In this document: piece by piece, positions 41,701 through 63,122 of the stretch
Layout of the letters: each line of letters begins with the position of its first letter
Numbering within the stretch: position 1 is the stretch's first letter
NCBI GenBank assembly: GCA_964537935.1
Contig: CAZICT010000001.1
Span: forward strand, 277,553 to 341,552
Source of the DNA: an uncultured Candidatus Saccharibacteria bacterium
Lineage (GTDB): Bacteria > Patescibacteriota > Saccharimonadia > Saccharimonadales > CAZICT01
Length of the DNA: 64,000 bases
Direction: 5' to 3'
Notes under the pieces: model-generated
Databases searched by the model: none
What the model was told of the DNA's origin: nothing
Seen by the model: only the letters and a program-made list of their open reading frames with translations
Position numbers and translations under genes: made by a program

Positions 41701-42090
41701 CTCCTGCGACCAATCGATAGAACTTGTAAACGGCGTTACATCTCCCAGTCGTGTGCTGATATATCCACCCTTGGAACTTACTGCCGGATGTACCTCTGAC
41801 CATATCTCCGTACCACCCGCTTCTTGAGAATAAAGCTTAAACTCAATGCTGTAACTGTCGTCCTCAACAATATCACCGCTCACTCGTGACAGCCTTGCCT
41901 GGAAGTTAAGCGTTGAGCTTGGTGCTGCGCTAGCTGTGTTTACACTCACGCGCGTATATGTATATAAACCGATTAACACAAAACAAAACAAAAACAGCCC
42001 CACTACCCTCTTACCAAGGGTATAGAGCCTTCTATCGACGCTTGTCCTACGTCGCAAAATGGTTAACTGCTTTTTTGCCAGCTTCACCAA
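38755..42090 (-). CDS. Giant secreted fibre-like protein A (1111 aa), function unknown
   Basis: Uninterrupted 3.3-kb ORF. Basic N-terminus plus a TM/signal helix (GLFLFCFVLIGLYTYT) with a cleavage-like TASA/AP site. It shares its N-terminal domain and a Cys-loop cassette with the 2520-aa ORF. It has an internal 206-aa duplication and a GKVGIGT motif. The start is TTG at 42090 or GTG at 42087. The confidence refers to coding status, not function. Confidence 0.85.
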   Translation of the reverse strand: MVKLAKKQLTILRRRTSVDRRLYTLGKRVVGLFLFCFVLIGLYTYTRVSVNTASAAPSSTLNFQARLSRVSGDIVEDDSYSIEFKLYSQEAGGTEIWSEVHPAVSSKGGYISTRLGDVTPFTSSIDWSQELWLTMNVNSDGEMSPRLKLTAVPHAFTASQAGALRYGTGTVTADDLLHKAPLSVQSINSSAAGLRLNQTGSGGLIQMQGNGNNVFVVDKSGNTSIAGNVSLGGGLRFFEDNATLTAPMSLINVDNTSITLNSANGGINAFWFAPTVEFAQNSNIFGAGLLFNNAATIKNTSGSDRMISSFYTLTAQPTLVADNGVVTQPFQYDIFSQPTFSTTNGGTWNTTTWQQITAGGTVNAGASIGTRYGLRVTDPGGTGTIGVNYGLTLDNLARGSTRNINLLIGTPPGTASNYSIYNASTYDNYFGGLMVLAGGAEVEGGLTAVGATTINSSGTANTIIGNSTGTLSLASSAFNLSSAGAVSGVTTLSTSGIVTVGSLGSADNDALICRNTAGQLAGCSSTFTTTETAFINNGNSFNGLATLGTNDAFGLVLKTDDTERFRIDADGKVGIGTASITHDSQLHIVTSAGTIGQIVQAANGQTAHLNDWRDGSGNSLLSLTSNGTFTFFEDDHTSTVTQDIIRVANTTITINAANGGINALWFAPTVEFAQNSNLFGAGTLFNNASTIKNTAGDDRLISSFYTLAAQPNFQADGAIVTQPMQYDIFSQPTFGSVNGGTWNTTAWQQFTAGGTVNTGATVGSRTGLRITDPGGTGTITNNYGIVIDSLSRGSNNNVGLLIGTAPTSGNYSIYNASAQDSYFGGLAVLAGGAEITDNVIINDSGTETSILVNKTSGTGNLLTLQRDGNNRFTIFNSGALQINSDATAALEVRNAAGGMSYFSVNSTGGVVQVGSSTSDATAVLMVLDSFNAATDPTGTLGAMYFNTATNTFRCYSGSWQDCAPSRIRKTADQSTTSTTVSNVSGMAFSLRANTEYKYECDVVFRTAATTTGIGLGFSVPSGFSMLSYTANIPVAADGTGGIMSGWGTANNDMIIGTGVQAANTDYSARVYGTVRTGGTAGNLQLRFRSEIGSSSVTVRTGSSCQITQIGP
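39583..40200 (-). repeat. Protein A internal repeat, copy 2 (aa 631-836)
   Basis: FFEDDHTSTV...INALWFAPTVEFAQNSNLFGAGTLFNNASTIKNT...YFGGLAVLAGGAEITD aligns without large gaps to copy 1. More than half of residues appear identical by eye. Confidence 0.85.
40762..41382 (-). repeat. Protein A internal repeat, copy 1 (aa 237-443)
   Basis: FFEDNATLTA...INAFWFAPTVEFAQNSNIFGAGLLFNNAATIKNT...YFGGLMVLAGGAEVEG. Confidence 0.85.
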
Positions 42091-43186: not shown

Positions 43187-46100
43187 TTAAGGGAATGGTG
43201 TATCGAGCGGCTGTTGTTCACCGCCGGTGAAAGTCTTGCCATGGCGTAACCGCTTGCTCGGGTCACTCGTAAAGAACAGTGTTAAGTCATGGATTGTAGG
43301 ACCGCGCGTCACGTCGTCCGGGTAACCGTAGGTTCTAGAACTGTCGATAGTCAGGTTAATGTGGTGATATCTGGAGAAATGAGTCGGATCACCGTTCGCA
43401 TCCACCGGTATATAATCTTCCGGTTGGCCAAGCGTGACTTCTCCAAAAACCGTTTCCTGCCCCCAGGCGATTGTGGCGGCAGTTGATGACCTGTAGCTTA
43501 AGGCCCAGCGGGCACCAATTGAGTTATCAAGCCCGTTCAGCAACCACTTGGTCGGGAAAACGTCTGTATCCGTATCAATTAAACGCGTATAACGCGCTAC
43601 CTGCGGCTGCGACATTAACGATGAATATACCACTCTGTTCAATCCTGTATATTCAACTCCACTCGCACCGGCTTTGACTATCCTGACATTATCAATTACC
43701 CAGTGGTCATTTCCCTCACCACTATTTGTTACTTGTGTCCATCGAAAACGGGTACTGGATGTTTGCGCACCGGCCGGTACACTTACTTCAACTGTGGTCA
43801 TCGTTGGGAAGTTTGTCTCGTCATATGTTGCTATAGTAGTCCAGTTGGAGCCGCTATTAGTCGAATACTGTAAGATTACATCCTCACCCGCCTCGGGAGC
43901 ATTACATGATCCGCTGTTAACTGTAGGTATATATAAATCAAAGAAGATTGTACCGCCGCTTGAAACATCTACATCTACCGTATCTGCCCTGTCAGTACCC
44001 CCAGATGAATGAAGCGCGTTTCCGCTGACTGATGTACAGAACGTTGCTGCGGACATCCCGACCGTACTCGACCATTGAGAACCATCTATACTCGGATCAA
44101 AATCGTCTTGCTGAACTGTTAGAGGTGCGGTGCAGCCTCCGCCAAGAACATAAACCTTCCCTTGGTCATAAACCGCTGCTGACCCAAACCTGTCACCGCT
44201 ATATCTTGAACTTGTTTCATACCATTCCCCTATACCTGTCGGATTGTTGCCGCTCGCTATAGTGGTGTTGGCGCTTATAGGGGCAATTAACGTATTTGAG
44301 TCACAGCTACTATCATTTTTTCTGCCACCTACCAGATACATATAGCCGTTAGCCGCAAAGCCGTCTCCTTGACGTATAGCCGTTGGCAGACTGGTCGTAA
44401 AACTCCAACTATCAAGCGTTCCATTAGTGTTAATTTGGTTGTACTGAACGTCATTCAGGTAGTTTGAACCATCATAGCCTCCAAGCGTATATAGGTTATT
44501 GGCGTATGCTATGGCAGTAAGGCCGCTTCGTGCTACGTTTATTGGAGTACTCGTGGACCAGCCAGATGTTATGTTTCCGCCGCTGGTGAGAGGCGGGCTG
44601 ACATATACTGTATTAGTAACATTGCCGTTATCGTCTTCACCGCCAACTACAAATAGCCGATCATTCCATTCTGCCGCACCAAAGTCGGCACGTGCGGATG
44701 GTAATCCGTTTGAAGCAGTAGACCATGAGGTTATGTTTCCGCCGCTGCCCGGCGTAGCATAATACACTGTAGAAACAGGGCTTCCGGAAGAATACACCGG
44801 ATGCGGATACGAATAGTAAGTATTAGACATTGGACGGTTAAGCGTAGAATCGGGTAGTTGCCACCCTATCTCCGCGTGGTCGCCGCCACCGCCTTCTTTA
44901 TAGTTTACTTCTATGTAATACCTGTGGCCGGCTACTAGCGGTATCAGCGCAGACTGTTGCTCTCCGTACTTAGTCCATTCGTTAACATTGGTCCAGCTGC
45001 CATTAGGAACACTTGCAATGGTCGTAGCGCCACTGGGACGCTCATCTGTGCTTAATCTAAGCTCTGCCGCATCGTCAGCGGCTACCCAGAATCTGTAATT
45101 GCCGGTCTGCGGGGCACAAATTACAGCTGAGAGCCTGCCGCCAAATTGATCCGCAATATCAACGGGAGTTGATAAACTTGCTCCATTAATCGTCTGAGTT
45201 GAACTCGGGTTGTCAGGATAAATGCCGCTACTGTAGAGATCATTGATGCTTGTTCCGCCGCCTATGCTGTTATACCTTTCAAAGCGAGCAGTGCCATCAG
45301 CTGAGCATGAACCAGGATCTGGTGAAGAGTAATAAGTATTGGACATCGGGCGATTAAGGGTACCGCCTGGGAGTGTCCAGCCAACACTTACATGGTCTCC
45401 ACCGCCACCCTCCTTATAGTTAGCCTCTAAATAATATTGCTTACCGGCCACCAAGGATATTGGTGATGACTGCTGCTGAGGATATTTAGTCCACTCTGTA
45501 ATACCGGAATATCCGGGGACCGAAGCTATAGTGGTTGCGTTCGCTCGAGTGGTATCAGTACTTAATCTAAGCTCCGTTCCATCGTCACCAGCCACCCAGA
45601 AGGTGTAATTACCGGTTATCGGCACACAAATCAGTGCAGATACTCTTCCGCCAAAATTATCTGCGATATTTGCAGGTGATGTGAGCGTAGATCCGGTAAG
45701 AATCTGCGTAGAGCTCGGGTTATCCGGGAAGTTAGGGCTGCTATACAGGTCATTTATAGATGTGCCGCCTATTCCGTCGTATCTCTCGAATAGGGCCGTT
45801 CCATCAGCCGTACATTCTGTCGCACCTCTACCACCAAGATAATAGAGCGACCCTCCGGCTGTTTCCAGCTGTCCATATGCTCGGTTTTCCGGAAGATTTC
45901 CGCTTGCCGTAGACCAGGTACCGACCGTACCATCCGGATTAAGCTGAGCATACTGGACATCATTAACCATACCTTCACACTCTGTGCTGCCTACACAACC
46001 ACCGGCAATATATATATATCCGTCAAGTACCGTTGCACTTACTCCAATTCTGTCGGTCGCAAATAAGTTAGAAGATGTTTTATACTCTGCCGGCGCACCG

Positions 46101-49100
46101 CTGTCGTTATTATATAGCTGGAAAGTCTGAACCATGTCGGTCCTGGTGTTACATCCCCCCGGACTAACACCATCTGTACAGCCGCCTATGACGAAAGCAT
46201 AAGAATTAGATACCGGTACGTTAAGTCCCCACCGCTGATTTATGACAACAGATGAAACATCGAAAGGCTCCAGATTTCCATTGCTAACATTGATCTTGGC
46301 GTACTGGATATCAGACAGCACACCTCCTTGTGCAGCATCATAACCACCGACTGCGTATAAGTAGCCGTTATATCCAAAACTTGTGCCTCGTCTACGTCCA
46401 ATAGACATCACTATAGGATCGCCGTTTGAATCAGTTGGTTCAATCCAGCTATTACCGCTTACTGCCACTACATTATTGTTATTATCAAATTTTGCATAGC
46501 GGATTGATGAGAGGTCCAGTGCATTATCTCCAGGTGCTACTCCACCGACTAAATATATATAGTTTGCATAAACCGTACCTGCGTGTAACGCCAGACCTGG
46601 AGCATTAGCTTCTCTAATAGTACCGATTTGTAACTGACCAGAAGTGGTACAATCATTTGCATTGTCCTCTTCTATCATTCCGTCTGTCCTTATATTGCAT
46701 TTATAGACTTCCTGGGAGTTAGAACCAGACGGACAGCCGGCGCCACTTGTGCTTCCGCTGCAGCCACCAAATATAAATAGATTCCCCGGATATGTTCCTG
46801 CTGAATAGGGGTTAGCACGGGCATAGGCAAAAGTATAAGATACCGATGTAGCCGCGATAGCCGAGAAGCTTTGTGAAGTCCAGGCTCCATCTAAACTACC
46901 GTCACTGTTTACGGCAATATGATAAATATTCCCCTTAAGCCCCGACCCGCTTTGCCCACCGATAATATAAATTCTGCTATTAAATACTGCGACACCAGCG
47001 GCCGCTACTCCCCCCGGCACTGGATTTGAAGTATCCACGCAATAAGATGCACTCACCGTACCGCCAGGACATGATACCGGCCTAGTTAGTCTTCCATTGG
47101 AACCAATGGCTGAATAAATAGTGTTTCCAGTCGTAGATGTGCAGCCATTATTTGTACAACCTCCTATAATATAAAGATACCCGTTAACTATGGCTGTTAC
47201 ATTAAGCATGTTCCCTATTGTCGCTGTACCAGGCAGGTGACAGTTGTAAGGGTCAGACCCAGAACAAGGACTGTTACCGCTTGGAACGGTTGTACTTACT
47301 GTACTTGCGTCGCCGTCCTGGTTAATAATCCCGTATTCAACGCTGTTTGTTGCCCCTACACAGCTGCCATTTACCGTACTTTGGGCAGAACATCCCCCCA
47401 CTCTGTATAAAGTATTCCGCCAGGATACTAATCCAAACCCAATGAGCTGATTAGAAACTCCTTGCACGGTATTCCATTCGGCAAGACTGCCATCAGCATT
47501 AATACTAGCCAGCTGAACATCCGTTTCAATATCCAAACAATATCCACTGCCGTTGACTGAAGAACATCCGCCCGCCAGATATATATATCCGCCCCATATT
47601 GCCGTAAAGCTTCCGCCCCAGGTCATACGTCCTTCATCAAAACTATTGGTTTGAACCCAGTTGTTCATAGTGCCGTCGTTGTTCAAAACCGTATAATGCA
47701 CCGTATCCTGCATGGAGCTACCGCTCCGTCCACCAATCAGATAAAGTCTGTCGTTATAAACCTGCGTAGAATGACCATAGCGCACAGACGGTAAACTGGT
47801 CATCCCGGTCGTTGACCACGCGCTAAAAGTACCCGTAGGATTTAAGTTGGCGTATTCCATTGTACTAACTCCACCGGGATTAGCATTGGTCTGCCCGCCC
47901 ATTATATACAACCGGTTATTATAAGCAGCTGCCGCCAAATAACTACGCTCACTGGATAAGTTAGTTTCCGAACCGCGGTACCAATATACCCAGTTGTCAG
48001 GATTATTATCGGTCGGATGCCACAAGCTTGGTTCACCGTTAACTCCAATTTTTGCTATATATATATGATTTGATCTGGTACCGTTCTCGTTTACCCCGCC
48101 AATCGCGTAAAGATACCCGTTATATGCCACCAAAGACAGGCCGACCCGGGTTACGGGTAGATCATAATCGGGTTCAGTGCACCAATCATCACAAACGCCC
48201 GCGCCGGGGTTAGGGCTTTCTATGGCATGGGTAGTTGGGTTAAATTTTGCCCAATAGACTGCGTTTTCACCATTACCCTCTCCGGGGTCTTCATCAGGCG
48301 GCTCATAGGTAATGATTACTCTTCCGTTCGCCCCAGATCCACCGGTTGTGTTGCGGCCTCCAGCTCCTCCTCCACCAAGTGCATTTCCAGCTCCACTAGT
48401 AGCATTTCCACCATTACCACCACCTTCTGAACCTCCAGCTCCTCCTGAGGTACCGGAGGCATTGCCACCACCTTGTGTTGTGCCAGCGCCGCCACCGCCG
48501 CCACCGCCATTACTAAAAGTGCCTCCATTTGCTCCATTACCGCCGGAATACTTAACGTCACCGACCGAAGAGCCTGCTTGACCACCTGACCCCCCAGACG
48601 TACCAGAACCGCCAGAACCACCTAGAGCCATTGCTGTAGATGTATTAATGAAATACGAGCTCCCACCCGTTTGTCCTGCTGAACCGCCTTGTCCAACAAC
48701 TACGTTATAGTTAGCACTAGGAGTAACAGAAACAGTACGACGCACATAAGCTCCGCCGCCACCGCCGCCAGAACCGGTAAAAGAACTAGTACTTGTTGCG
48801 CCACCGCCGCCAGCACCCCAGGCATGAACTGTCACCTCTGTTACACCTTCAGGCACCGTCCAGGTGTCAGAAGAGTCAAAGACAACCTCTTGCTCATTTC
48901 CTGAAGCCGCCTGGAGCACATAGCGAACCACCACTATGCCGGAGCCACCATCGCCACCTCGACCGCTTGAGCCGGCGCCTTGCGTACCACCACCGCCACC
49001 GCCAGTGTTTGGTTGACCGTCTTGCCCGTCCGTATTACCACCTCCGGCGCCACCGCCACCGGCACCGCCAGCGCCGCCATTATCACCGGAAGCACCACCA

Positions 49101-50917
49101 CCACCGGCATAAGTAACTGATGATCCCGTTATTGAAGAAGAGAGACCGGCTCCACCTGCACCGCCGGTGCTGCTATTACCGTTGCCTCCGACTGATCCGG
49201 CTCCGCCGCCTCCAGCGCCGCCAGCGCCAACAGCAAGCGGTCCGGGTGTTCCGCCATTATTACCTTGCCCTGGCGTGCCGTTGCCTGATGAACCACCAAC
49301 ACCGCCGCCACCGCCGGAGCCTCCATTCCTACCGTTACTATTCAAATTTCCGCCACCGCCGCCGCCAATGGCTGTGGCCACGCTAGAAATAGATGAATTA
49401 CCACCATCGCTTCCATCCCCGGCATTTCCACCATTACCGCCCGCGCCAACAGTAACACTATATGAACCGGCTGATAGCGACGCAACACCTTCTAGCATCC
49501 CGCCTGCTCCGCCACCGCCCCGGCCCGCATTGCCGGTTGCTCCGGCGCCACCGCCACCACCGCCGACGATCAGATACTCAATATTTACTGATCCTCCACT
49601 TATGTTCAATGACCCCGAGTTAGTAAAAGTATGCACCCTATAATCAACACCGCCGACGTTGATATCTGTAATCGTACCACCGGTTACAGATGCCGAGCTC
49701 CCGCCTCCGGCTTCAACACCTCCTACCGTATAAATGTATCCCCCTGCTACTGCGGTACCATGCCCCCACCTAGCTACATTCAGACCCATTGTGCTATTCC
49801 ATTCATCAAAACGTGCGCCAGTGGTATGACCTTTTTGGATTAATTCATTTTCAATGTCAAAGTCCACATTTGTCTCATTATTTCCGCGCATCAGCTTTTG
49901 GGCGGTATCCACATAAATACTCGGGTCAATACTTAATGGATAAGACGCTTGGTTTAGACCATTTACAACTAGCCTTATAGTACTAGCAGCTATTTCATAA
50001 CTGAGGTCGAGCTCGGATACATCTTTACCTGATTCTACCGCTACGGGCGGCGGAACGGCGAACAGGAGTTTATCCTTTTTGGCATTTTTACGTGCTTTTT
50101 CGAGCAGCTCAGCATCTTCCTCAGAGCCAGTGCTGATATTTTTGCCGTTTATCGGTAATGAGCTTCCATAAAACCCAATTGAGCCGTTCGATTCAAGCCT
50201 GGCCTCTATATTGTCGGGCTTTTCAAGCTCATATTCAAAAACCAGCGAATCAACATCAACAGTCCTTTCGATTACGATATCTTCTTTGACTCCGGTAATC
50301 TGCCCTGTGTAAACCAGGTAGCCAGGGTAATCTGCGAGCCGGTGCACTATTTGATTTACATCTTTCCTTCCTTGTATGGCCTTAAATTTTGGAGTTAATT
50401 TAATGCTAACTTCGTTGTAAGGGTCGACTATGGTAAGTGCCGCCGATTTACTAGAGTCAACAGACGCCTTTATACGCGGCGTTCCGGAGCCGTTACCACT
50501 CAATCCTTCGCCGTTAGCCGGCACAAAGCTCTTGTTATAAGCATAACCGCCGGTATCGGCATCTTCAGTAAAATAAGAAGCCAGCCTGCTGTTCGGTTCT
50601 GGTAATACTGCTCTTATTTGCTCATTTAGATTGTACGGCTTTGTCTCTATAAACGGCATCATTGAGACGCCTAGCACAGAGGTAACAATCAAGGCCACCA
50701 TACATAGAGAATAAATTCTAATAAACAGCGGCTGCTTATGAAGTTGCTTGGTGTTTTTAATTGCCGCATTACCGATGTTAGATACTAAAAGATGAGCACG
50801 TGACAGAGTCTTTTTTGCGCCAGCAGCTGAAACGCGACGGGCAGACTTATATTTAAGCGTGCCCTTAGCATGCTTTATGGGTGTTTTTCTCCTGGCTGTT
50901 GATTTTATTCCATCCAT
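43187..50917 (-). CDS. Giant surface protein B (2576 aa): Kelch-type blades, two glycine-rich modules, tandem PA14-like domains, C-terminal jelly-roll-like and conserved tail modules
   Basis: Uninterrupted 7.7-kb ORF. Basic N-terminus plus a TM helix (aa 64-86). Many Kelch-like units are visible (e.g. YNGYLYAIGG, YNNRLYIMGG, YNDRLYLIGG). Domain details are given in the findings. The confidence refers to coding status. Confidence 0.88.
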   Translation of the reverse strand: MDGIKSTARRKTPIKHAKGTLKYKSARRVSAAGAKKTLSRAHLLVSNIGNAAIKNTKQLHKQPLFIRIYSLCMVALIVTSVLGVSMMPFIETKPYNLNEQIRAVLPEPNSRLASYFTEDADTGGYAYNKSFVPANGEGLSGNGSGTPRIKASVDSSKSAALTIVDPYNEVSIKLTPKFKAIQGRKDVNQIVHRLADYPGYLVYTGQITGVKEDIVIERTVDVDSLVFEYELEKPDNIEARLESNGSIGFYGSSLPINGKNISTGSEEDAELLEKARKNAKKDKLLFAVPPPVAVESGKDVSELDLSYEIAASTIRLVVNGLNQASYPLSIDPSIYVDTAQKLMRGNNETNVDFDIENELIQKGHTTGARFDEWNSTMGLNVARWGHGTAVAGGYIYTVGGVEAGGGSSASVTGGTITDINVGGVDYRVHTFTNSGSLNISGGSVNIEYLIVGGGGGGAGATGNAGRGGGGAGGMLEGVASLSAGSYSVTVGAGGNGGNAGDGSDGGNSSISSVATAIGGGGGGNLNSNGRNGGSGGGGGVGGSSGNGTPGQGNNGGTPGPLAVGAGGAGGGGAGSVGGNGNSSTGGAGGAGLSSSITGSSVTYAGGGGASGDNGGAGGAGGGGAGGGNTDGQDGQPNTGGGGGGTQGAGSSGRGGDGGSGIVVVRYVLQAASGNEQEVVFDSSDTWTVPEGVTEVTVHAWGAGGGGATSTSSFTGSGGGGGGAYVRRTVSVTPSANYNVVVGQGGSAGQTGGSSYFINTSTAMALGGSGGSGTSGGSGGQAGSSVGDVKYSGGNGANGGTFSNGGGGGGGAGTTQGGGNASGTSGGAGGSEGGGNGGNATSGAGNALGGGGAGGRNTTGGSGANGRVIITYEPPDEDPGEGNGENAVYWAKFNPTTHAIESPNPGAGVCDDWCTEPDYDLPVTRVGLSLVAYNGYLYAIGGVNENGTRSNHIYIAKIGVNGEPSLWHPTDNNPDNWVYWYRGSETNLSSERSYLAAAAYNNRLYIMGGQTNANPGGVSTMEYANLNPTGTFSAWSTTGMTSLPSVRYGHSTQVYNDRLYLIGGRSGSSMQDTVHYTVLNNDGTMNNWVQTNSFDEGRMTWGGSFTAIWGGYIYLAGGCSSVNGSGYCLDIETDVQLASINADGSLAEWNTVQGVSNQLIGFGLVSWRNTLYRVGGCSAQSTVNGSCVGATNSVEYGIINQDGDASTVSTTVPSGNSPCSGSDPYNCHLPGTATIGNMLNVTAIVNGYLYIIGGCTNNGCTSTTGNTIYSAIGSNGRLTRPVSCPGGTVSASYCVDTSNPVPGGVAAAGVAVFNSRIYIIGGQSGSGLKGNIYHIAVNSDGSLDGAWTSQSFSAIAATSVSYTFAYARANPYSAGTYPGNLFIFGGCSGSTSGAGCPSGSNSQEVYKCNIRTDGMIEEDNANDCTTSGQLQIGTIREANAPGLALHAGTVYANYIYLVGGVAPGDNALDLSSIRYAKFDNNNNVVAVSGNSWIEPTDSNGDPIVMSIGRRRGTSFGYNGYLYAVGGYDAAQGGVLSDIQYAKINVSNGNLEPFDVSSVVINQRWGLNVPVSNSYAFVIGGCTDGVSPGGCNTRTDMVQTFQLYNNDSGAPAEYKTSSNLFATDRIGVSATVLDGYIYIAGGCVGSTECEGMVNDVQYAQLNPDGTVGTWSTASGNLPENRAYGQLETAGGSLYYLGGRGATECTADGTALFERYDGIGGTSINDLYSSPNFPDNPSSTQILTGSTLTSPANIADNFGGRVSALICVPITGNYTFWVAGDDGTELRLSTDTTRANATTIASVPGYSGITEWTKYPQQQSSPISLVAGKQYYLEANYKEGGGGDHVSVGWTLPGGTLNRPMSNTYYSSPDPGSCSADGTARFERYNSIGGGTSINDLYSSGIYPDNPSSTQTINGASLSTPVDIADQFGGRLSAVICAPQTGNYRFWVAADDAAELRLSTDERPSGATTIASVPNGSWTNVNEWTKYGEQQSALIPLVAGHRYYIEVNYKEGGGGDHAEIGWQLPDSTLNRPMSNTYYSYPHPVYSSGSPVSTVYYATPGSGGNITSWSTASNGLPSARADFGAAEWNDRLFVVGGEDDNGNVTNTVYVSPPLTSGGNITSGWSTSTPINVARSGLTAIAYANNLYTLGGYDGSNYLNDVQYNQINTNGTLDSWSFTTSLPTAIRQGDGFAANGYMYLVGGRKNDSSCDSNTLIAPISANTTIASGNNPTGIGEWYETSSRYSGDRFGSAAVYDQGKVYVLGGGCTAPLTVQQDDFDPSIDGSQWSSTVGMSAATFCTSVSGNALHSSGGTDRADTVDVDVSSGGTIFFDLYIPTVNSGSCNAPEAGEDVILQYSTNSGSNWTTIATYDETNFPTMTTVEVSVPAGAQTSSTRFRWTQVTNSGEGNDHWVIDNVRIVKAGASGVEYTGLNRVVYSSLMSQPQVARYTRLIDTDTDVFPTKWLLNGLDNSIGARWALSYRSSTAATIAWGQETVFGEVTLGQPEDYIPVDANGDPTHFSRYHHINLTIDSSRTYGYPDDVTRGPTIHDLTLFFTSDPSKRLRHGKTFTGGEQQPLDTPFP
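43190..43645 (-). other. C-terminal ~150-aa module of protein B, shared with the Kelch protein at 63175-64000
   Basis: VARYTRLID...SRYHHINLTID...IHDLTLFF...RLRHGKTFTGGEQQPLDT aligns with SGRYSKLID...GRYVLITVNMD...IQDLTISA...RLRGGKFFLGNILQPLDT. Confidence 0.7.
44804..45307 (-). repeat. PA14-like module, copy 2 (protein B aa 1871-2038)
   Basis: CSADGTARFERYNSIGGGTSINDLYSSGIYPDNPSS...TGNYRFWVAADDAAELRLSTD...LVAGHRYYIEVNYKEGGGGDHAEIGWQLP. Confidence 0.7.
45320..45814 (-). repeat. PA14-like module, copy 1 (protein B aa 1702-1866)
   Basis: CTADGTALFERYDGIGGTSINDLYSSPNFPDNPSS...TGNYTFWVAGDDGTELRLSTD...LVAGKQYYLEANYKEGGGGDHVSVGWTLP. Confidence 0.7.
48308..49687 (-). other. Two consecutive glycine-rich modules of protein B (aa 411-870)
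   Basis: Module 1 runs from VTGGTITDINVGGVDYRVHTFTNSGSL...EYLIVGGGGGGAG to GGSGIVVVRY. Module 2 runs from QEVVFDSSDTWTVPEGVTEVTVHAWGAGGGG to GSGANGRVIITY. On the plus strand the DNA is CCACCGCC-type low complexity. Confidence 0.8.
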
Positions 50918-51438: not shown

Positions 51439-54400
51439 TTATTGACCCAGTGTCGTAAAGCTTAAGTTACCTACGTATACATTGGCATTGCTATTTGCCT
51501 TGACGTTAATCTTGAAGATCACATTGTTGTCGGCAGAAGCCGCACTAAATCCACAACCGGTCGCTTCATCACCGTTTATCGAAACTGTCTGCCATGTGTT
51601 AGCTGAGGTAGTGACCGTAGTCTCCGAACCGCAAGCATACAAATTACCGCCTTCACTTCTGAACATTTCATAGGTCACAATGCCGTTAGAAACATGGTCG
51701 GTCCGAGCAGTTAGTCTTACCGTGTCGTTATCCGAGAATTGTCCGAATTCTGCCGGCAGCTGGTAAGTTACATATATGCTGTAGGTTTGCTGAGTTGCCT
51801 GCGGTGAAGTCCAGCGGTAGTAGTTACCGGCAACGACGCCCGGGTTGCCTGTTCCATCACAGATAGCTGTATTTACTTCGAGTACGGATGCCTCGTTAGC
51901 ACAGAAGTCAGCGGTAAGTGTACCGACGCCTGTTCCGTTCAATACAGCTCCTGCATATTCAGGGGTCAAGTTCACGAAGTTGTTAGGCGCTGAACCACAA
52001 GCTCCCCAACCGTCCGCTTCGTAGCATTGGATGCGACCACTGGTAGTGTCGTAGTACATAGAGCCTAAGTAAGCTTCGTTGCCATCTTCTACCGGCGGTG
52101 CTGATGAGCGGTCGAGAGTAAACAACGTGATAGGTCCGCCGTTAAGTCCGCCGCCGATTTGTACATGCGATGGTTCTGTCGTGGCGTCATTGCGCTGGAA
52201 GCTCAAGTTATCTATCCAGAAAGTTCGTGAAGTCGAATCGGTTTGCCGAATAATGAGGTCCGGATTTGTGGCGGCTGTACCATCAGTAGTAATTGTACAT
52301 GTTACTTTCGTCCAGCCGGTAGTTATCAGAGTCTGCGTAGAGTAGTTAGTACAAGCTACCGTATTGGTGCCGCCATTCCTGGAATAGACAACCTGCAGAG
52401 TAGTAAACGTTCCGGAAGACAGCTTACCGGTAAACGAAACTTGGTAAGTGGTGTTGGTTGCCGGATTGCCACTTAGGTTGTTACGTACACCCCTGTTAGC
52501 ACCTGAACCAGTCACTACCTGCACACCGGCTTGACCTGTTACATATTGGCCATTTGTAGTAGTTCGGGTTACCGTACCGCCAGCCGGTGCAGCTGACCAG
52601 TTAGTACTAAAGCTACTTGATGTTTCGGCACCCCCGTTGGCAGCTAACTCAGTACCCAGGTTGTTGACACTAAACAGGTTGGTACCGATAGATGACTGAA
52701 CCTCAAGTATACCGCCAACTATCGGATTATCCGGGTTGTTACGGATAGTCAAACCGTCAGCGTTGCCACCAGGGCCATTCAATACGATTTCAGCGCCACC
52801 GGCACTGGTAAGCGTGTTGGTGTAAGCAGCCTGCAGCGTGGTAGAGCTGGATGCGCCGGCGGCTGTCCAGTCACTGCCGTTCCATATCATTGTTGCAGTG
52901 GTATTGGCTCGCATAGCAATTTCGTTACCGCCACCGCCGCCGTTCACTACTAGAGTGAAGTCATTGGATCCGTTGGCAGCAGTTACGTACACGACCCGGC
53001 CGGCAGTGAGATTTGTCGGGTCAGGAAGTGATACATCAAGGCCTGGGTTGGTCGTATTCACAATTACCGCAGCGTTGTTATCAACGTTTGCTTGAGTAAC
53101 TACACAGTTAGTCGCACAGTTTTGCTGGGTTGCAGTAGCAAATGTTGGAGTGTCTATTACTACCAAGCCTTTTACTCCGGTTCCTACACCCGCACCACCG
53201 CTCAGCAATACGTTACCGCCGTTAGCATTACCGGTACCAGCTGCGCTGCCGCCTTGCAAAACAAGGTTGCCGCCAGTAAATGCGCTTCCGCCGGCCCCGG
53301 CGTTCCCGGCACTTACGGTTAAGTTATTGCCAGCTGCGTTGGTGGTGCGGGTTTCCAGCTTAATCGTTCGTGCGCTATCACCACCAAACGATAGATCAGC
53401 AGTTGCATTTTCAGTACCAATCCCTACACGGCCACTAGCCTTTACTACAAAGAGAGGATCGTCAACGCTATTCAATAACCGCAATAAATCATTAGAAACC
53501 GTCAAAGTCTTTATAGTAAAGCCCACATTATCATCTGTAAATAACTCCGTATCATTACTGCCACTAGCATCATCCGAGGTAAGGATTAGCTTATAATCAG
53601 CTCCCTCACCCCTGATCTTAATATTTCCTTCAAACCATGCTCCTTGATTAAACAAGAATTCATCGTTGTGCGCGTCGTAGCTCACGGTTCCGTCATCACC
53701 ATCTGTACCCATACGCAGTCCACCTTGCAAATATATGTCTTTCCACCTAATGGCACTCGAGCCGATATCATAAGTATTATTTGCATCGGGGCCAACATCT
53801 CCCTGAACTTGTAGCGTAAAGTTAGTAGGTGCGGTCCTGATTCCAACTTGCATGTCTAATGTGTTAACGATCAACACTGGGTCACCATTACTGTCTTTAA
53901 CGGAAAGTGCGGTACTAGAGGAGTGGGATATTGTTGAATCCCCTTCAAACCATGTACTGCCGACTACTTCCAGTTTGGCACTTGTTGGGGTAGCGGTACC
54001 TATACCCACATTGCCATCGTTGCGGACAAAGAACAGAGAGTCGTCATCTGAGTTAAGAATGTTAAGCGCAGATGTAGCATTGGTGTTTCCGTTGCCTTTT
54101 ACTACAAGCTTCGAGCCTGGTTCGAACGTGCCAATTCCAACGCTGTGTCCATATACGCTATCTGTAACATTTAGCACCTGAGTTCCCTGGCTGACCAACC
54201 GAATTCCTGCGTCGGAGTTTAGGAATAGCTGACCGGATCCATTATGATTTATGAAACTGCCGCCACAATCATCACAGCTAGAAAATTGTAAGTAATTTAT
54301 ACCGTCTCTACTTATATTAAAGTCTTCGGACAAATTAGGTGCTCCGCCGCCCACGAATACGCGTCCTGCGCCATTTACAAGCAAACCTGTGCGCGGAGTT

Positions 54401-57400
54401 CCGTCAGCATCACCTACTACTTTTAGTACGTCTACATTTGCTGCGCCGTTATATGTCTCGATCGATAGACCGTCACCCGTTCCGGTATTTATGAGTTTAC
54501 TGACGTAGTCAGAGCCCACATCTGCCTGAGAGTATATGCCACCCTGGACATTCACCTGGTCGGTCGAGCGCACGCCCTGACCAAGGGTTAGGGTCTTCAC
54601 TCCATGCGATCCTACGGTAGGGTTATATGCAGGAGTATGCTGGAAGCCAACAAGCTGAGGGCCATAGCCGTATACTATTATGCTATCCGGAGCTGTAGCA
54701 GAATCTACATATATATCGAGGTAAGCATTATTGCTGCCGTCATTGCTTGCCCTTACCTGAGTAACTATGCTGCCATTGTATGCAGACTGGCGGGTCTGCG
54801 TAATAGTAGCTGGCATGCCGTAACCACTAACGTGGTATTGGAACTCTAACTCAGTTGGCTTATTGTCATAATTCGCTACGATACGGATTATGCCAGAACT
54901 GAATGCACTACCTGTAGATATTATCCGGTACCAACCTGTATTCCCTGCTGTTGGTGTGAAATCAGTCACATGTTCTACAAATATTCCACTAGTCTTTACG
55001 TCACCAGCAGCTACTTCCAGGCCATATCCAGGAGTGCTTGTACCAATACCTACTCTGTTGTTTGTTGCATCTACGAACAGCGTGTCGGTATCGAAGGCGA
55101 CATCGCCATTAGCTTGGACGGTCAGACGTACCTGATTATTAGTTATAATTTCTAAATCATCAGCATCTGTAGTGCCTAATACTGCCGTGGCATTAAAGTC
55201 ATTGCCACCCTGCATGAAAGAGTTAGCAGAAGTTAAGAAAGTAGAGCTACATGCAGCTAATTGGTTAGAGCTATTACGGCAAAGAACTGCATCAGTATTG
55301 GCTGTCCCTAGGGTACCTACGGTTACTATACCTGTGGTTTCCAGAGTAGTTACACCACTGACAGCACCAGCGCTGGAAACGTTTAAGCCTGCTGAAGTTA
55401 TGGACAACGTTCCAGTAGTATTACCTATAGAAGTGTTTGCTGTGCCAGTGGTGTTTATGGAAATAGTGCCTGTTATAGTCAGGCCTCCGGTACCCTGAAG
55501 CAATCCGGCTCCAGCGTTTACACCAACTGCAGTTACAGCACCGGCACTTGTTACAGTGAAGTTGCCAGTAGCGCCACCTACACTGAGAAGCTGGGATGGG
55601 GTTCCTGATGTGCCTATGCCCACATTTCCATTACCCATAATCCTCATTACTTCTGTGCCCAAAGTATTAGACAATCTCAGGTGATAATCGTTTGCAGTAG
55701 TGCCAGTAATTAGAGTCTGTAACGTAAAGTTATTCCACTTGGTAGAACCGTCATAGTAAGAACCTTGCATCTTAAACACAGGCGAATTGCGTGTATTAGT
55801 TCCATTATCCGCACCGCGGCTTGTTAAGTAAGCTTCTCCGTTGCTTGTATCAACACCGAATGTTGGTTGGCCAGCAAATTCGCCCACACGGAAAGCGCTA
55901 CTACCGCTCACTACAATCTCTACTTCTTTATTATGGATACCGAATCCGGCGCTTCCTGAATAGCCATTAATGGCCACGTCGCCGTCTGCCTGTAAAACAA
56001 ATCTATCATTCCCACCACTAAGCAAGTGAATCAGGTTGCCACCGCCAGTATCATTTATATGTATAGATGGATTGGCTGATGAATCTGCTTGAACTGTAGA
56101 AGGAGCTAATTGTACATAGCCTTGAAGGTCATCGGTGGTCGCAAAAGTTGAACTACAGCTCGCAAATTGACCGGCTGCATTACGGCAAAGAACGGTGTCG
56201 GTATCTGCCGTACCAAGTGCACCTACCGTAATAATGCCAGAAGTAGAAAGGGTTGTTACTCCACTCACTGCACCTGCGCTTGTTACGTTCAGGCCCGAGG
56301 AAGTTAGAGTAAGTGTACCAGTAGCATTACCGATGGCGGTGTTGGCTGTGCCGGAGGTGTTTATCGAGGTGGTGCCAGTTGCAGTTAGGCCGCCACTCAA
56401 CGTCGTAAGACCAGTTCCTACTGTAAATGTATTGGAGCCACTTACTGCTGTGTTTCCATCAAGTGATACTGTACCCGCACCATTTGGCGTAAGAATGACA
56501 CTACCATTACCCCCCATTGAAGTTAAGGTAAGATTTCCGGTATTTGTTCTTATAGTGGAAGCGCCATTGCCCTGGAACTCACCTCCACTTAGTATTGACC
56601 ATCTACCTAAGCTATTAGTATAGAACTCTATAGAGTTAGGGTTGGAGGTTGTGAGCCTGAGCGTGCCTGTACTGGTAATGTCGCCACCGTTTACTGCCAG
56701 GTCACCAGAAAGAGTGGCATCAACTGCGCTAATATCACCGCTAAAGGTAGCGTTTACTGCACCGATGTCTCCTGAAAATGTACCGTTAACTGCACCTAGA
56801 TCGCCAGCAAGTGTGACGTTACCGCTGGCGTCTACATCAAAGTTATTGAAATTAATAACAGCAGTCGTGCCTTGCAGGGTTTGTGCTCCTAAATCAATGC
56901 CGGCACCGGCAACGATTTGTCCATTAAACGTTTTAGCGCCGGCGAATGTTTGTGCACCAGTACTTACAAGCCCAGGATGTGTGCCGTCGGCAGTTTGCAT
57001 AAATAATGCGCCACCAGTTATGACTGCACCGTCTGCGCTCTTTGTTTGAGAATCTATGGTACCAATCGCACCGACTACGCTGCCACTAAGCGATACGGTC
57101 GTAACCCAATTACTGCCATTCCATATAAAGGTATTGCTCTGCCCTGCAGCTATGACACTGTCATACATAGTAAAGCTGACACTTCCGGTATTGTTTACAA
57201 ATGCAACGCGGCCGGCCGTAGCATCCGTGGGCGCAGGCAGCGTAAGCGTCTGTCCAGCAGTTGTTTGACTTACATTAAAGGTAGTAGCCACATCAACTGT
57301 CGCTGCAGCAGTGCCTATGTTTCCACCAGCTGCACGGTTAGTAATAGCGATTGCACTAAAGAGAGTGCTTCCTGCGTTGGTAAATTGCTGACCGGTTGCG

Positions 57401-59001
57401 ACGCTAAGACCTCCGTTGAATGTTGCCAGTCCGGTTACACCTAACGTGCCAGAGATACTTAAATCTCCAGTAATATTAGTGTCATCCTGCAGCTCAATCG
57501 TATCGGCAGAGTTAAGTATGATGCTATTGCCTGCACCATTTGAAGTAATTGTAGTAACACTACCTCGCACAGTAGTGGTTTGGCCGGTTGCACCGACGAC
57601 CAATGCTCCGCCTGACGTGATGTTCAGAGCTCCGGTGGAGGTAATGTTACCACCGTTTACTGCCAGGTCGCCAGCCAAGGTAACATCGCCATCCGCGTCA
57701 ACGTCGAAATTATCAAAATTAATGGTAGCTGAGGTGCCTTGAAGAATTTCTGTACCCAGATCAATTCCAGCGCTGGCAATAATTTGTCCATTAAATGTTT
57801 TAGCGCCGGCAAAGGTTTGTGCTGCTGTGCTGACCAGTCCGGCATAGGTATCATCTGCAGTTTGTAGATAAATAAGATTTGCAGCTACCGTTGCCCCGCT
57901 TGCGTTCTTAGCTGCTCCGTCAAGTGACCCTACTCCGGTTACTCCGCTACCTGCGCCATCTATATTGGTTCCAACCCAATTACTGCCATTCCATATATAT
58001 GCCTGTGACCGGGCACTACTTATCGTAACTCCGTACATAGCAAATGCTTCAGATCCTACATTATTTATATAGACAACGCGGCCAGCTGTTGTATCGGTTG
58101 GTGTCGGAAGCGTTAATGTCTGTCCAGCAGTAGTTTGGTTGATATTGAAAGTTGATGCTACGTCAACCGTGGCTTCAGCCGTGCCGATCACACCGCCTCC
58201 AGAAATATTAGAAATTGCAATCGCTGTAAACAAACTGCTGCCGGCATTTGTGAACTGTTGGCCGCTAGCAATTGTTGCGCCGCCACTAAAGGTTGCCAAA
58301 TCGTCAACCGTCAAGGTCCCACTAAAGTCTCCGTTTACGGCCGATACATCACCGCTGAAAGTGGCGTCGCCCGAGTTATTAATAACCAACACATCGCTGC
58401 CGCCGCTTTGTAGTTGCAATACATTGCCGCTACCAGCCTGGTTAACAGCAATTGCACTGTTAGTGGTATTCACAACTTGAGGTGTAGCCCCAGGGTTTAG
58501 CTGCACAAACTCATCTTCCGTACGACTTCCAAGTTGCTCAGCGCTGAACGCAAATGGTACCGCCGTAAGCTTGAGGCGCGGTGACATTTCACCGTCGCCG
58601 TTAACGTTCATGGTTAGGAACTTGTCATCGGACCAGTCTAAATCAGGGAAAGATGTGTGCGTGCCAAGGTAAACGCTCAGATAACCCGCCTTGACCGAAA
58701 CTTGAGCCGTCCCGCTGTTCCAGGTTTCGGTCCAAAGACTGCTGCCTCCAACCAAGTCTTCGTAGATGTTGAAGGTGATACTGTAGTTCCCATCAGGGAC
58801 GATAGAACCGGAGGCGCTTAGCAGACGAGCCTGAAAGTTGAGAGTGTCAGATGGAGCAGCAAAAGCCCTATCCGTCGAGCGCGTATATGTATTAAACCCG
58901 ATAACAGCAAGCAAGACCGCTGAAAATACAAAACTGGCTACACGGAACAATCTCAGTGCGCCAGCAAACTTAATGATGTTATGTTTTCTTGTTTTGGACA
59001 T
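51439..59001 (-). CDS. Giant secreted fibre-like protein C (2520 aa) with repeated modules and a CBM4/9-like domain
   Basis: Uninterrupted 7.6-kb ORF. Signal/anchor helix (aa 16-35) with a DRAFA/AP cleavage-like site. It shares its N-terminal domain with protein A. It has tandem 216-aa modules and two Cys-loop cassettes. It carries several GNVGIGT-type motifs, an NTYDIGSSAIRWKDIYL motif and a C-terminal lectin-like region. The confidence refers to coding status. Confidence 0.88.
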   Translation of the reverse strand: MSKTRKHNIIKFAGALRLFRVASFVFSAVLLAVIGFNTYTRSTDRAFAAPSDTLNFQARLLSASGSIVPDGNYSITFNIYEDLVGGSSLWTETWNSGTAQVSVKAGYLSVYLGTHTSFPDLDWSDDKFLTMNVNGDGEMSPRLKLTAVPFAFSAEQLGSRTEDEFVQLNPGATPQVVNTTNSAIAVNQAGSGNVLQLQSGGSDVLVINNSGDATFSGDVSAVNGDFSGTLTVDDLATFSGGATIASGQQFTNAGSSLFTAIAISNISGGGVIGTAEATVDVASTFNINQTTAGQTLTLPTPTDTTAGRVVYINNVGSEAFAMYGVTISSARSQAYIWNGSNWVGTNIDGAGSGVTGVGSLDGAAKNASGATVAANLIYLQTADDTYAGLVSTAAQTFAGAKTFNGQIIASAGIDLGTEILQGTSATINFDNFDVDADGDVTLAGDLAVNGGNITSTGALNITSGGALVVGATGQTTTVRGSVTTITSNGAGNSIILNSADTIELQDDTNITGDLSISGTLGVTGLATFNGGLSVATGQQFTNAGSTLFSAIAITNRAAGGNIGTAAATVDVATTFNVSQTTAGQTLTLPAPTDATAGRVAFVNNTGSVSFTMYDSVIAAGQSNTFIWNGSNWVTTVSLSGSVVGAIGTIDSQTKSADGAVITGGALFMQTADGTHPGLVSTGAQTFAGAKTFNGQIVAGAGIDLGAQTLQGTTAVINFNNFDVDASGNVTLAGDLGAVNGTFSGDIGAVNATFSGDISAVDATLSGDLAVNGGDITSTGTLRLTTSNPNSIEFYTNSLGRWSILSGGEFQGNGASTIRTNTGNLTLTSMGGNGSVILTPNGAGTVSLDGNTAVSGSNTFTVGTGLTTLSGGLTATGTTSINTSGTANTAIGNATGTLTLTSSGLNVTSAGAVSGVTTLSTSGIITVGALGTADTDTVLCRNAAGQFASCSSTFATTDDLQGYVQLAPSTVQADSSANPSIHINDTGGGNLIHLLSGGNDRFVLQADGDVAINGYSGSAGFGIHNKEVEIVVSGSSAFRVGEFAGQPTFGVDTSNGEAYLTSRGADNGTNTRNSPVFKMQGSYYDGSTKWNNFTLQTLITGTTANDYHLRLSNTLGTEVMRIMGNGNVGIGTSGTPSQLLSVGGATGNFTVTSAGAVTAVGVNAGAGLLQGTGGLTITGTISINTTGTANTSIGNTTGTLSITSAGLNVSSAGAVSGVTTLETTGIVTVGTLGTANTDAVLCRNSSNQLAACSSTFLTSANSFMQGGNDFNATAVLGTTDADDLEIITNNQVRLTVQANGDVAFDTDTLFVDATNNRVGIGTSTPGYGLEVAAGDVKTSGIFVEHVTDFTPTAGNTGWYRIISTGSAFSSGIIRIVANYDNKPTELEFQYHVSGYGMPATITQTRQSAYNGSIVTQVRASNDGSNNAYLDIYVDSATAPDSIIVYGYGPQLVGFQHTPAYNPTVGSHGVKTLTLGQGVRSTDQVNVQGGIYSQADVGSDYVSKLINTGTGDGLSIETYNGAANVDVLKVVGDADGTPRTGLLVNGAGRVFVGGGAPNLSEDFNISRDGINYLQFSSCDDCGGSFINHNGSGQLFLNSDAGIRLVSQGTQVLNVTDSVYGHSVGIGTFEPGSKLVVKGNGNTNATSALNILNSDDDSLFFVRNDGNVGIGTATPTSAKLEVVGSTWFEGDSTISHSSSTALSVKDSNGDPVLIVNTLDMQVGIRTAPTNFTLQVQGDVGPDANNTYDIGSSAIRWKDIYLQGGLRMGTDGDDGTVSYDAHNDEFLFNQGAWFEGNIKIRGEGADYKLILTSDDASGSNDTELFTDDNVGFTIKTLTVSNDLLRLLNSVDDPLFVVKASGRVGIGTENATADLSFGGDSARTIKLETRTTNAAGNNLTVSAGNAGAGGSAFTGGNLVLQGGSAAGTGNANGGNVLLSGGAGVGTGVKGLVVIDTPTFATATQQNCATNCVVTQANVDNNAAVIVNTTNPGLDVSLPDPTNLTAGRVVYVTAANGSNDFTLVVNGGGGGNEIAMRANTTATMIWNGSDWTAAGASSSTTLQAAYTNTLTSAGGAEIVLNGPGGNADGLTIRNNPDNPIVGGILEVQSSIGTNLFSVNNLGTELAANGGAETSSSFSTNWSAAPAGGTVTRTTTNGQYVTGQAGVQVVTGSGANRGVRNNLSGNPATNTTYQVSFTGKLSSGTFTTLQVVYSRNGGTNTVACTNYSTQTLITTGWTKVTCTITTDGTAATNPDLIIRQTDSTSRTFWIDNLSFQRNDATTEPSHVQIGGGLNGGPITLFTLDRSSAPPVEDGNEAYLGSMYYDTTSGRIQCYEADGWGACGSAPNNFVNLTPEYAGAVLNGTGVGTLTADFCANEASVLEVNTAICDGTGNPGVVAGNYYRWTSPQATQQTYSIYVTYQLPAEFGQFSDNDTVRLTARTDHVSNGIVTYEMFRSEGGNLYACGSETTVTTSANTWQTVSINGDEATGCGFSAASADNNVIFKINVKANSNANVYVGNLSFTTLGQ
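52192..52653 (-). other. CBM4/9-like carbohydrate-binding-type jelly-roll candidate in protein C (aa 2117-2270)
   Basis: ELAANGGAETSSSFSTNWSAAP...TTYQVSFTGKL...GWTKVTCTITT...RTFWIDNLSF fits the NGGFE...W...Y.vSf...W......f.iDdvsl pattern that I associate with CBM_4_9. Pattern recall only. Confidence 0.45.
56782..57429 (-). repeat. Protein C 216-aa module, copy 2 (aa 525-740)
   Basis: LATFNGGLSVATGQQFTNAGSTLFSAIAITN...TAGQTLTLPAPTDATAGRVAFVNNTGS...FIWNGSNWV...AQTFAGAKTFNGQIVAGAGIDLG...NFDVDASGNVTLAGDL. Confidence 0.85.
57652..58299 (-). repeat. Protein C 216-aa module, copy 1 (aa 235-450)
   Basis: LATFSGGATIASGQQFTNAGSSLFTAIAISN...TAGQTLTLPTPTDTTAGRVVYINNVGS...YIWNGSNWV...AQTFAGAKTFNGQIIASAGIDLG...NFDVDADGDVTLAGDL. 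Confidence 0.85.
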
Positions 59002-62987: not shown

Positions 62988-63097
62988 ACTGCCTTTTATT
63001 TTTCTTACGTAGCTTTAATTTATGATTAAACTTACTTTTATACGAGTGACAGAGGCATTCATCCAGCCTCAACTATAGTTCTGGCTACGAAACACGC

Positions 63098-63122
63098 CTT
63101 ATTTAATATTTAATTAAATAAG
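63098..63122. terminator. AT-rich 10-bp inverted repeat in the convergent intergenic region (possible bidirectional terminator)
   Basis: CTTATTTAAT (63098-63107) and ATTAAATAAG (63113-63122) flank a 5-nt loop. The stem is almost entirely A/T and therefore weak. Confidence 0.25.

Follow-up and report, generated by a model that had tools for sequence, protein, structure and literature searches.

Protein B, a 2520-aa protein encoded in a 64,000-nucleotide stretch of DNA (hereafter the window) from an uncultured Candidatus Saccharibacteria bacterium (contig CAZICT010000001.1), is probably a surface fibre exported by the Sec route and belonging to the superfamily of mosaic adhesive trimers (MAT), of the type designated NS74, that serves adhesion to glycans on the surface of a host. 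Its gene starts with ATG and occupies positions 51439..59001 of the minus strand, stop codon included; all features of protein B given below lie on the same strand. The MAT superfamily comprises fibres of Bdellovibrio bacteriovorus (Caulton et al. 2024, PMC10769870), in which a signal peptide is followed by a conserved beta-rich N-domain of ~130 aa and an intertwined trimeric beta-helix with capping loops, and in which the far end is an S74 chaperone or, in the NS74 type, an adhesive tip of another kind. These fibres have been shown on the predator surface, and one of them, Bd2439, binds N-acetylglucosamine and Proteus lipopolysaccharide (PMC10769870). A signal peptide, the N-domain, a beta-helix shaft with capping loops and an alternative, NS74-type tip were all identified in protein B, indicating, at the level of sequence, that it is a member of the MAT superfamily by every testable defining feature. 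The first-pass annotation of this DNA had described the motifs of the protein as fibre-type, which proved correct, but it named neither the MAT family nor the N-domain as the hallmark of that family.

The frame of protein B is the only long open reading frame (ORF) at its position, and an identical protein is on record in an NCBI assembly and in the Logan assembly of run SRR7082976. Its relatives are ~200 giant proteins (201) with S74, beta-helix, Kelch or carbohydrate-binding module (CBM) content, and those with a named source are annotated as Candidatus Saccharibacteria or Saccharimonadales, some having already been automatically annotated as 'tail fiber domain-containing' or 'carbohydrate binding domain-containing'. 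The identical records and the ~200 homologues indicate that the ORF is a real gene. Residue counts (G 13.5, T 13.3, A 9.8, S 9.2, N 8.3 and V 8.0%) agree with the richness in Gly, Thr, Ser, Asn and Val first reported for it, and the motifs originally listed were all recovered, at most 1-2 residues from the positions first given. In addition, the 16 cysteines of protein B form eight consecutive pairs with spacings of 3-26 residues, which fits an exported, disulphide-bonded, extracytoplasmic protein.

The leader of protein B (aa 1-48; 58858..59001) has a basic n-region, an h-region (VASFVFSAVLLAVIGF) and a c-region ending in AFA|AP, and the A-x-A immediately precedes a conserved LNFQ(A/G)R, a layout kept in ~100 relatives. 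This pattern looks more like a predicted cleavable Sec signal peptide than like the signal anchor initially assigned to it. The beta-rich N-domain of ~125 aa (aa 49-172; 58486..58857) follows directly, and it is conserved in ~105 of the 119 relatives compared. As had been proposed, it is shared with protein A, a MAT-type paralogue of 1111 aa with a TTG start (38755..42090, minus strand) that has the same signal peptide layout, the N-domain, a C-x9-C loop, a single capping loop (VGIGT at 573) and an internal duplication of its own of ~190 aa; residues 21-220 of protein B align with residues 30-230 of protein A at 46% identity. A hidden Markov model (HMM) of the N-domain matched proteins A and B only in the window. 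Across 1.84 billion clusters, the N-domain profile (A2) matched 42,066 representatives at E<=1e-3 and 15,491 at E ≤ 1e-10, and in the best 150 of the 42,066 the domain lies near the N-terminus, beginning between residues 2 and 137, in proteins that are 144-6397 aa long. Divergent members begin with [FIL][NS][YF]QG. The N-domain is also present in an Omnitrophica metagenome-assembled genome (MAG) protein and in three proteins (P0192, P0201 and P0206) that combine a signal peptide, the N-domain, VGIGT units and an S74 domain with SDER[LI]K. No Pfam model covered the N-domain in scans that included 300-aa windows, and its profile found no relative among PDB sequences, the best match being an insignificant one to a NEAT domain (E 0.08).

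For comparison with Bdellovibrio, the Bd2133 capping loop NVGIGATAPTAKLE was back-translated and scanned against one genome per species, so that the reference N-domain comes from a MAG gene with the exact Bd2133 loop and not from strain HD100 itself. This gene (L003, 1891-4200, minus strand), from a Bdellovibrio sp. MAG, encodes a 769-aa fibre with a signal peptide, an N-domain beginning 'ISFQGVI…', capping loops and a beta tip. The exact loop also occurs in a Bacteriovorax sp. MAG (L002, 6482-7936, minus strand), in an ORF with a TTG start in which, over the 484 aa listed, neither a signal peptide nor an N-domain was seen. Fourteen homologues of the Bdellovibrio N-terminus were collected into a 15-sequence Bdellovibrio-type alignment, and local hhalign comparison of this with a 50-sequence Saccharibacteria-type alignment gave a probability of 96% and E 3.8e-9 over 130 columns, spanning the region from the cleavage site to a closing …AVPYAF.A motif. 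A broadened N-domain profile scored the L003 N-domain at 21 bits. These alignments indicate that the MAT hallmark N-domain is present in protein B and is homologous to the Bdellovibrio-type N-domain.

The shaft of protein B carries the second family signature. A beta-helix-type segment at aa 1100-1345 (54967..55704) has capping loops at 1125 and 1315, and three to four further units of ~45 aa at aa 1585-1880 (53362..54249) have capping loops at 1620, 1663, 1718 and 1857, with the aligned unit pattern …ALN..NS…LFFVRNDGNVGIGT..P…L.V.G. The loops read GNVGIGT (aa 1125 and 1663), NRVGIGT (1315) and GRVGIGT (1857), with degenerate copies SVGIGT (1620) and QVGIRT (1718). The motif VG[IV][GN]T occurs five times in protein B, whereas 20,000 shuffled sequences contained 0.10 copies on average and three at most, none reaching five. 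All six VGIGT-type loops fit the published capping loops, which include RVGVGTTAPTSALH, NVGIGATAPTAKLE and LVGIGTATPAAPLH (Supp. Fig. 18, PMC10769870) and follow the pattern V-G-I/V-G/N-x-x-x-P-x-x-x-L (PMC10769870). The VGIGT..P...L sequence, first described simply as a fibre motif, thus corresponds to the MAT capping loop, and it also occurs in tail-fibre PHROGs and in 143 phage records.

Searched as a whole against PDB sequences, protein B gave just a weak CBM match, and the MAT matches required a family profile of aa 1585-1900. With this profile (A4, the aa 1585-1900 alignment) searched against all PDB sequences, Bd2133 (8OND) was matched at E 9.4e-17, Bd3182 (8OJN/8ONB/8ONC) at E 4.6e-9, Bd2439 (8OL4/8ONF) at E 1.3e-6 and Bd1334 (8ON4/8OML) at E 5e-6 to 1e-5, while MyRF was marginal. 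Monomer models were generated for aa 1585-1900 and aa 1880-2520. The AlphaFold model of the former consists of all-beta hairpins (predicted local distance difference test score, pLDDT, 69.7), and its top PDB matches in Foldseek were the same Bdellovibrio fibres, at E 5e-4 to 7e-3. Homology to crystallised trimeric fibres suggests that protein B would form homotrimers.

Whole-protein searches of PHROGs and NCBIfam gave no match, but 300-aa windows matched phrog_5906 (E 3.7e-12, aa 1288-1334) and phrog_1417 (E 2e-7), as well as the 'tail fiber' families phrog_5342 (E 1e-5) and phrog_7121 (E 7e-5, aa 1620-1761). The fibre, tail-fibre and lectin homology anticipated by the first-pass annotation was thereby found, through PHROGs and CBM_4_9 in windows of this size and through the family profile for MAT fibres. 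In tblastn searches, the 84-aa capping-loop unit at aa 1262-1345 matched 143 phage records, the best being the tail fibre of Pelagibacter phage HTVC168P (57% over 49 aa), and aa 1501-1900 matched no phage at E 1e-3. Homologues of aa 1290-1900 comprise 269 shorter proteins, many with PF13884 (Peptidase_S74), Mtd_N or PF26696. The motif NTYDIGSSAIRWKDIYL (aa 1742-1758; 53728..53778), of the form DxGSS..RW..Y, had been called typical of tail fibres, and its profile (10 sequences, comprising aa 1729-1781 and relatives) bore this out against the PDB: among solved phage fibres it matched gp28 of cyanophage P-SCSP1u (8I4M, E 7e-10), the tailspike of an Acinetobacter phage (6EU4, E 2e-7) and pb1, the L-shaped tail fibre of T5 (4UW8, E 0.008).

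The C-terminal module would form the tip. The model of aa 1880-2520, built with 27 sequences (mean pLDDT 71.7), contains three confident domains (aa 1954-2049, 2119-2271 and 2294-2519). The first is a small beta-sandwich (aa 1954-2049; 52855..53142; pLDDT 85-92), and the second is a jelly roll of the CBM4/9/16/22 type (aa 2119-2271; 52189..52647; pLDDT 83-94) supported by Pfam, profile and Foldseek matches. CBM_4_9 (PF02018) is the sole Pfam match of protein B, at aa 2133-2252, where the score of 27.3 bits for the full-length sequence rises to 30.9 bits when a 300-aa window is scanned (cut-off 25.9), and the C-terminal profile matched CBM16 and CBM22 structures (2ZEZ, E 1e-4; 4XUP, E 1e-3). 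In Foldseek, the C-terminal model had its best match in 4XUP, a structure of tandem CBM22 modules (E 2e-11), over 444 columns that cover both C-terminal domains, followed by CBM16, CBM4, Reelin, Cry/Vip3 carbohydrate-binding-like domains and SGBP-B; the jelly roll alone reached template-modelling (TM) scores of about 0.67 on the target against CBM22, CBM16 and CBM4. The CBM4/9-like segment of the first-pass annotation is thus borne out, and the modelled fold suggests that the C-terminal module may bind carbohydrate. The idea of a glycoside hydrolase was set aside, as no catalytic-domain match was found in protein B, and an S-layer protein was likewise discarded for lack of any S-layer-type domain.

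The third domain (aa 2294-2520; 51442..52122) is beta-rich, has three Cys pairs and is always terminal in relatives. It includes MYYDTTSGRIQCYEADGWGAC (aa 2315-2335), whose counterpart in protein A, already noted in the first-pass annotation, is MYFNTATNTFRCYSGSWQDC (aa 943-962); after the common motif MY(F/Y).T....(R)CY..G.W..C, the C-terminal domain of protein A differs from that of protein B. A protein fragment (P0122) from a MAG labelled 'archaeon YNP-LCB-024-027' carries repeated capping-loop units together with VIYYDSSTNKFRCYQNGAWVDC. As this is the motif of protein B 2315-2335 and protein A 943-962, the Cys motif appears to travel with MAT-type shafts outside Saccharibacteria. Against predicted viral structures (BFVD), the best matches of the C-terminal model were to tail fibres, to tail proteins of the CBM-cenC kind and to minor tail proteins, at TM ~0.2, which is fold-level similarity only. 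Many of the minor tail proteins belong to phages of Arthrobacter and Microbacterium, which infect Actinobacteria, and Actinobacteria are the usual hosts of cultivated Saccharibacteria. At such TM-scores the resemblance may be generic to CBMs.

Outside the confident domains lie two segments that are highly conserved in the family yet unfolded in the monomer model. The Gly-rich region at aa 1880-1950 includes a Gly-rich stretch (aa 1893-1938; 53188..53325; pLDDT 37-56) that is kept in relatives, and the neck (aa 2053-2115; 52657..52845; pLDDT 30-50), …AAGASSST.LQ.AY.NTL.SAGGAE.VL…LEVQ.SIG.NLFSVNN, is the most conserved stretch of the family, with the consensus …WTAAGASSSTDLQ.AY.NTLTSAGGAE.VL…LEVQ.SIGTNLFSVNN among relatives. 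The neck has the shaft-unit pattern L.V…G..LF.V.N.G. Because both segments are conserved but unfolded as monomers, they probably need partner chains, and the neck may be a trimer-dependent turn of the beta-helix. No S74 domain was detected in protein B by Pfam (PF13884), PHROG or NCBIfam searches of the whole protein and of 300-aa windows, and no suitable SDxxxK was found near the C-terminus, the sole SDxxxK being SDYVSK at 1497. The absence of S74, together with the alternative tip made of a CBM-like domain and a second beta domain, indicates that protein B is of the NS74 type.

The remaining parts of protein B were mapped by self-comparison and by comparison with the 119 relatives. A module of ~290 aa occurs in tandem (aa 206-463, 57613..58386; aa 494-785, 56647..57522), the two copies being 57% identical and each containing a small beta-sandwich (aa 276-342 and 567-632). 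The beta-sandwich at aa 276-342 is related to aa 1970-2045, making the domain at aa 1954-2049 a third copy of this type, while a Phage_depo_C match at aa 580-632 in the 300-aa windows was weak and below the cut-off (E 0.0057). The shaft module at aa 868-1032 (55906..56400), which bears a C-x9-C loop (C939/C949), is repeated at aa 1165-1355, where the second C-x9-C loop (C1241/C1251) lies, and each copy aligns with residues 437-619 of protein A at 47-50% identity. Residues 1300-1320 are covered by ~110 relatives. A putatively globular module (VE..VT.FTPT..GWYRI ... YGYGP) at aa 1336-1493 (54523..54996) is shared by a few relatives, namely P0085, P0086, P0087, P0089, P0002 and P0123, at 43-49% identity; P0086 is a paralogue from the same genome, so that at least three MAT-type paralogues (A, B and P0086) are encoded on one contig of 352,644 bp. 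The middle of protein B (aa 720-1850) is the variable, mosaic part of the family, and in relatives the middle or the end is instead occupied by beta-helices of the pectate-lyase type, Kelch propellers, additional copies of the CBM or, C-terminally, Peptidase_S74. The module at aa 1900-2520 is kept by 55-80 of the 119 relatives, always at the extreme C-terminus, and at least eight relatives share with protein B just the last ~200 aa. Since the shaft units repeat, a MAFFT alignment of aa 860-1900 (A3, 55 fragments) was misplaced and was discarded; only windows of ~300 aa align correctly.

Several observations weigh against the assignment of protein B to the MAT-type adhesive fibres. The Foldseek TM-scores of aa 1585-1900 to the trimeric chains are low (0.16-0.3) and the beta-helix is modelled at moderate confidence (pLDDT 69.7), although low scores are expected where a lone chain is compared with chains of intertwined trimers. 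The link between the N-domains required broader profiles, because the Saccharibacteria-only profile and its hhalign comparison with the single Bdellovibrio N-domain (L003) were not significant. The CBM_4_9 score is near the Pfam threshold, CBM4/9/22 modules are usually monomeric, and protein B has no S74 chaperone to drive trimerisation. The main caveat is that conservation of the C-terminal module equals that of the N-domain and it is the middle that varies, so that this module could be the anchoring or export end; this is the reverse of the rule for Bdellovibrio MATs of a conserved base and a variable tip, with the N-terminus as the attachment end and the C-terminus as the tip (PMC10769870).

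Some of these observations would be explained if protein B were a monomeric 'beads-on-a-string' adhesin, similar to the giant Gram-positive or RTX adhesins, that has borrowed tail-fibre-like modules without trimerising. The three C-terminal domains do model confidently as independent monomers, small beta-sandwich domains recur along the chain, and the monomeric habit of CBM4/9/22 modules and the missing S74 chaperone point in the same direction. However, the shaft units are homologous to segments that form intertwined trimers in five crystal structures, the conserved regions at aa 1880-1950 and 2053-2115 are unfolded as monomers, as expected of chains that need partners, and the NS74 MATs of Bdellovibrio trimerise without a chaperone (PMC10769870), which together make a monomeric adhesin improbable. 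Somewhat less probable still is that the C-terminal module is cell-proximal, binding the bacterium's own wall glycopolymer or acting as a sorting or export signal, with the variable middle contacting the host. The retention of the last ~600 aa at the very end of 55-80 of the 119 relatives, while the middle is swapped for beta-helix, Kelch or other heads, the relatives that share only the last ~200 aa, and the nearby LCP glycopolymer transferase gene would all suit such an arrangement. However, MATs and phage fibres attach by the N-terminus and carry the tip at the C-terminus, the C-terminus of protein B shows none of the known sorting motifs (LPXTG, for example), and the N-domain is even more widespread (42,066 representatives across lineages), fitting a role in presentation. 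A phage-derived tail-fibre gene is highly implausible, for although the capping-loop unit matches tail-fibre PHROGs and phage genomes and NTYDIGSSAIRWKDIYL matches solved phage fibres, the similarity is confined to units of ~45 aa with no phage match of aa 1501-1900 at E 1e-3 and no PHROG match of the whole protein, a Sec signal peptide is present, and the neighbours are surface-protein and housekeeping genes, with no phage gene among the ORFs checked in the window, so that the locus appears to be ordinary chromosome and a prophage origin was set aside.

For a MAT-type fibre, the mode of action can be outlined by analogy, with the MATs of Bdellovibrio and the fibres of phages as models. One fibre would be assembled from three chains of protein B and, at ~2470 mature residues, might be ~100-180 nm long when scaled from Bd2133 (370 aa, ~145 Å) and Bd3182 (~760 aa, ~550 Å) (PMC10769870). 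The N-domain would tether the fibre to the envelope of the epibiont itself, the jelly-roll module at the C-terminus would bind a surface glycan of the host bacterium, and the shuffled middle would vary fibre length and add binding surfaces. In this way, the fibre may contribute to host recognition and attachment beside type IV pili.

Among known systems, the NS74 MATs of Bdellovibrio (Bd2133, Bd1334, Bd2439, Bd2734 and Bd2740; PMC10769870) are the closest in architecture, sharing with protein B the order of signal peptide and N-domain, beta-helix units ending in a capping loop V-G-I-G-x-x-x-P-x-x-x-L, the lack of S74, and a beta-rich tip that folds on its own, has disulphides and is of an adhesive or lectin type. 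In both cases several mosaic paralogues are encoded per genome, and the bearer lives on other bacteria. The bearer of protein B is a bacterium of the candidate phyla radiation (CPR) with a presumed Gram-positive-like envelope, whereas Bdellovibrio is diderm. Protein B is also 2.5 times longer, at 2520 aa versus ~1000 for NS74 MATs and a maximum of 1915 in Table S3 (PMC10769870), and its tip comprises three domains, one of them a jelly roll of the CBM4/9/16/22 type, which is not among the MAT tip types described there. Unlike Bdellovibrio MATs, its shaft contains internal globular beta-sandwich domains and C-x9-C loops, and variation among the Saccharibacteria relatives falls in the middle, the C-terminal module being conserved, whereas in Bdellovibrio MATs the base is conserved and the tip varies.

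The S74-type phage fibres and tailspikes (T5 pb1 4UW8, K1F endosialidase, 8I4M and 6EU4) share with protein B the motif D-x-G-S-x-x-x-R-[WF]-x-x-[IV]-[YF] and capping-loop beta-helix units, and a C-terminal Peptidase_S74 (PF13884) like theirs is carried by Saccharibacteria relatives of protein B. However, in protein B a Sec signal peptide and a cellular N-domain replace the virion-attachment domain, the S74 chaperone/autoprotease is absent and the similarity is confined to short units; the tail-fibre motif, which in T5 pb1 lies just before the S74 cleavage site, is internal in protein B and followed by ~760 residues. The CBM4, CBM9, CBM16 and CBM22 modules (4XUP, 2ZEX/2ZEZ and 3K4Z) have a jelly-roll fold with weak but significant similarity to protein B, whose C-terminal tandem resembles the CBM22-1/CBM22-2 arrangement. 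In contrast to the CBMs of glycoside hydrolases, with which identity is 13-20%, the module of protein B accompanies no catalytic domain and stands at the end of a fibre instead of in an enzyme.

Protein B is therefore not categorically new; what is new is its length, its CBM-type multi-domain tip, its internal globular domains and its CPR source. The MAT members listed so far come from predators and a few other phyla, none from Patescibacteria (PMC10769870), and no paper joining MATs and Patescibacteria was found in the literature searched. Work on Saccharibacteria attachment by cryo-electron tomography and genetics deals mainly with type IV pili and a few unnamed adhesins, and the supplements of the Saccharibacteria transposon-sequencing paper contained no 'tail fiber', 'S74' or 'CBM_4_9' annotation. 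Protein B extends the MAT family to a CPR lineage of Gram-positive type, in which a single Saccharibacterium carries genes for several very long fibres of the family used by Bdellovibrio to recognise prey glycans, and it draws attention to an N-domain family of ~42,000 cluster representatives that has neither a Pfam model nor a solved structure. As a candidate determinant of host range, protein B bears on the question of how ultrasmall, epibiotic members of the CPR select their hosts and stay attached to them. A broader and more speculative possibility, on which we place considerably less confidence, is that Saccharibacteria, perhaps CPR bacteria generally, carry an expanded set of giant MAT-type trimeric fibres that might be their main host-recognition system, the N-domain sitting on the epibiont wall, the conserved CBM-type C-terminus reading a common host glycan and the shuffled middle bearing lectin, Kelch or beta-helix (possibly enzymatic) heads. 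If so, one adhesin system would be common to an endobiotic predator (Bdellovibrio), phages and ultrasmall epibionts, and MAT-type fibres would have been overlooked next to type IV pili in host recognition.

The region around protein B is a surface-protein island. Between proteins A and B lies a second giant ORF (43187..50917, minus strand; 2576 aa) with two Gly_rich_2 domains, many Kelch repeats forming several propellers, two PA14 domains, a Reelin subrepeat-B-like domain and an N-terminal hydrophobic, possibly transmembrane segment; the N-domain HMM found no MAT N-domain in it. An ORF of 269 aa between protein A and this Kelch giant (42346-43155, minus strand) had no Pfam or NCBIfam match. 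On the other side of protein B (59429-63942) are a 513-aa CarboxypepD_reg/Ig-like protein and a 678-aa protein with a right-handed beta-helix and Big_7, both on the plus strand, and a Kelch protein on the minus strand. The fibre genes are adjoined by genes of chromosome partition and of envelope biogenesis, for ParA/ParB, signal peptidase I, HtrA and an LCP glycopolymer transferase (32638-38666), and the window further encodes SecA, the Lys-, Ser- and Pro-tRNA synthetases, RF1/PrmC and S2/EF-Ts. The peak in GC content (0.543) and the strong GC skew at 48001-50000 are attributable to the Gly-rich part of the 2576-aa giant.

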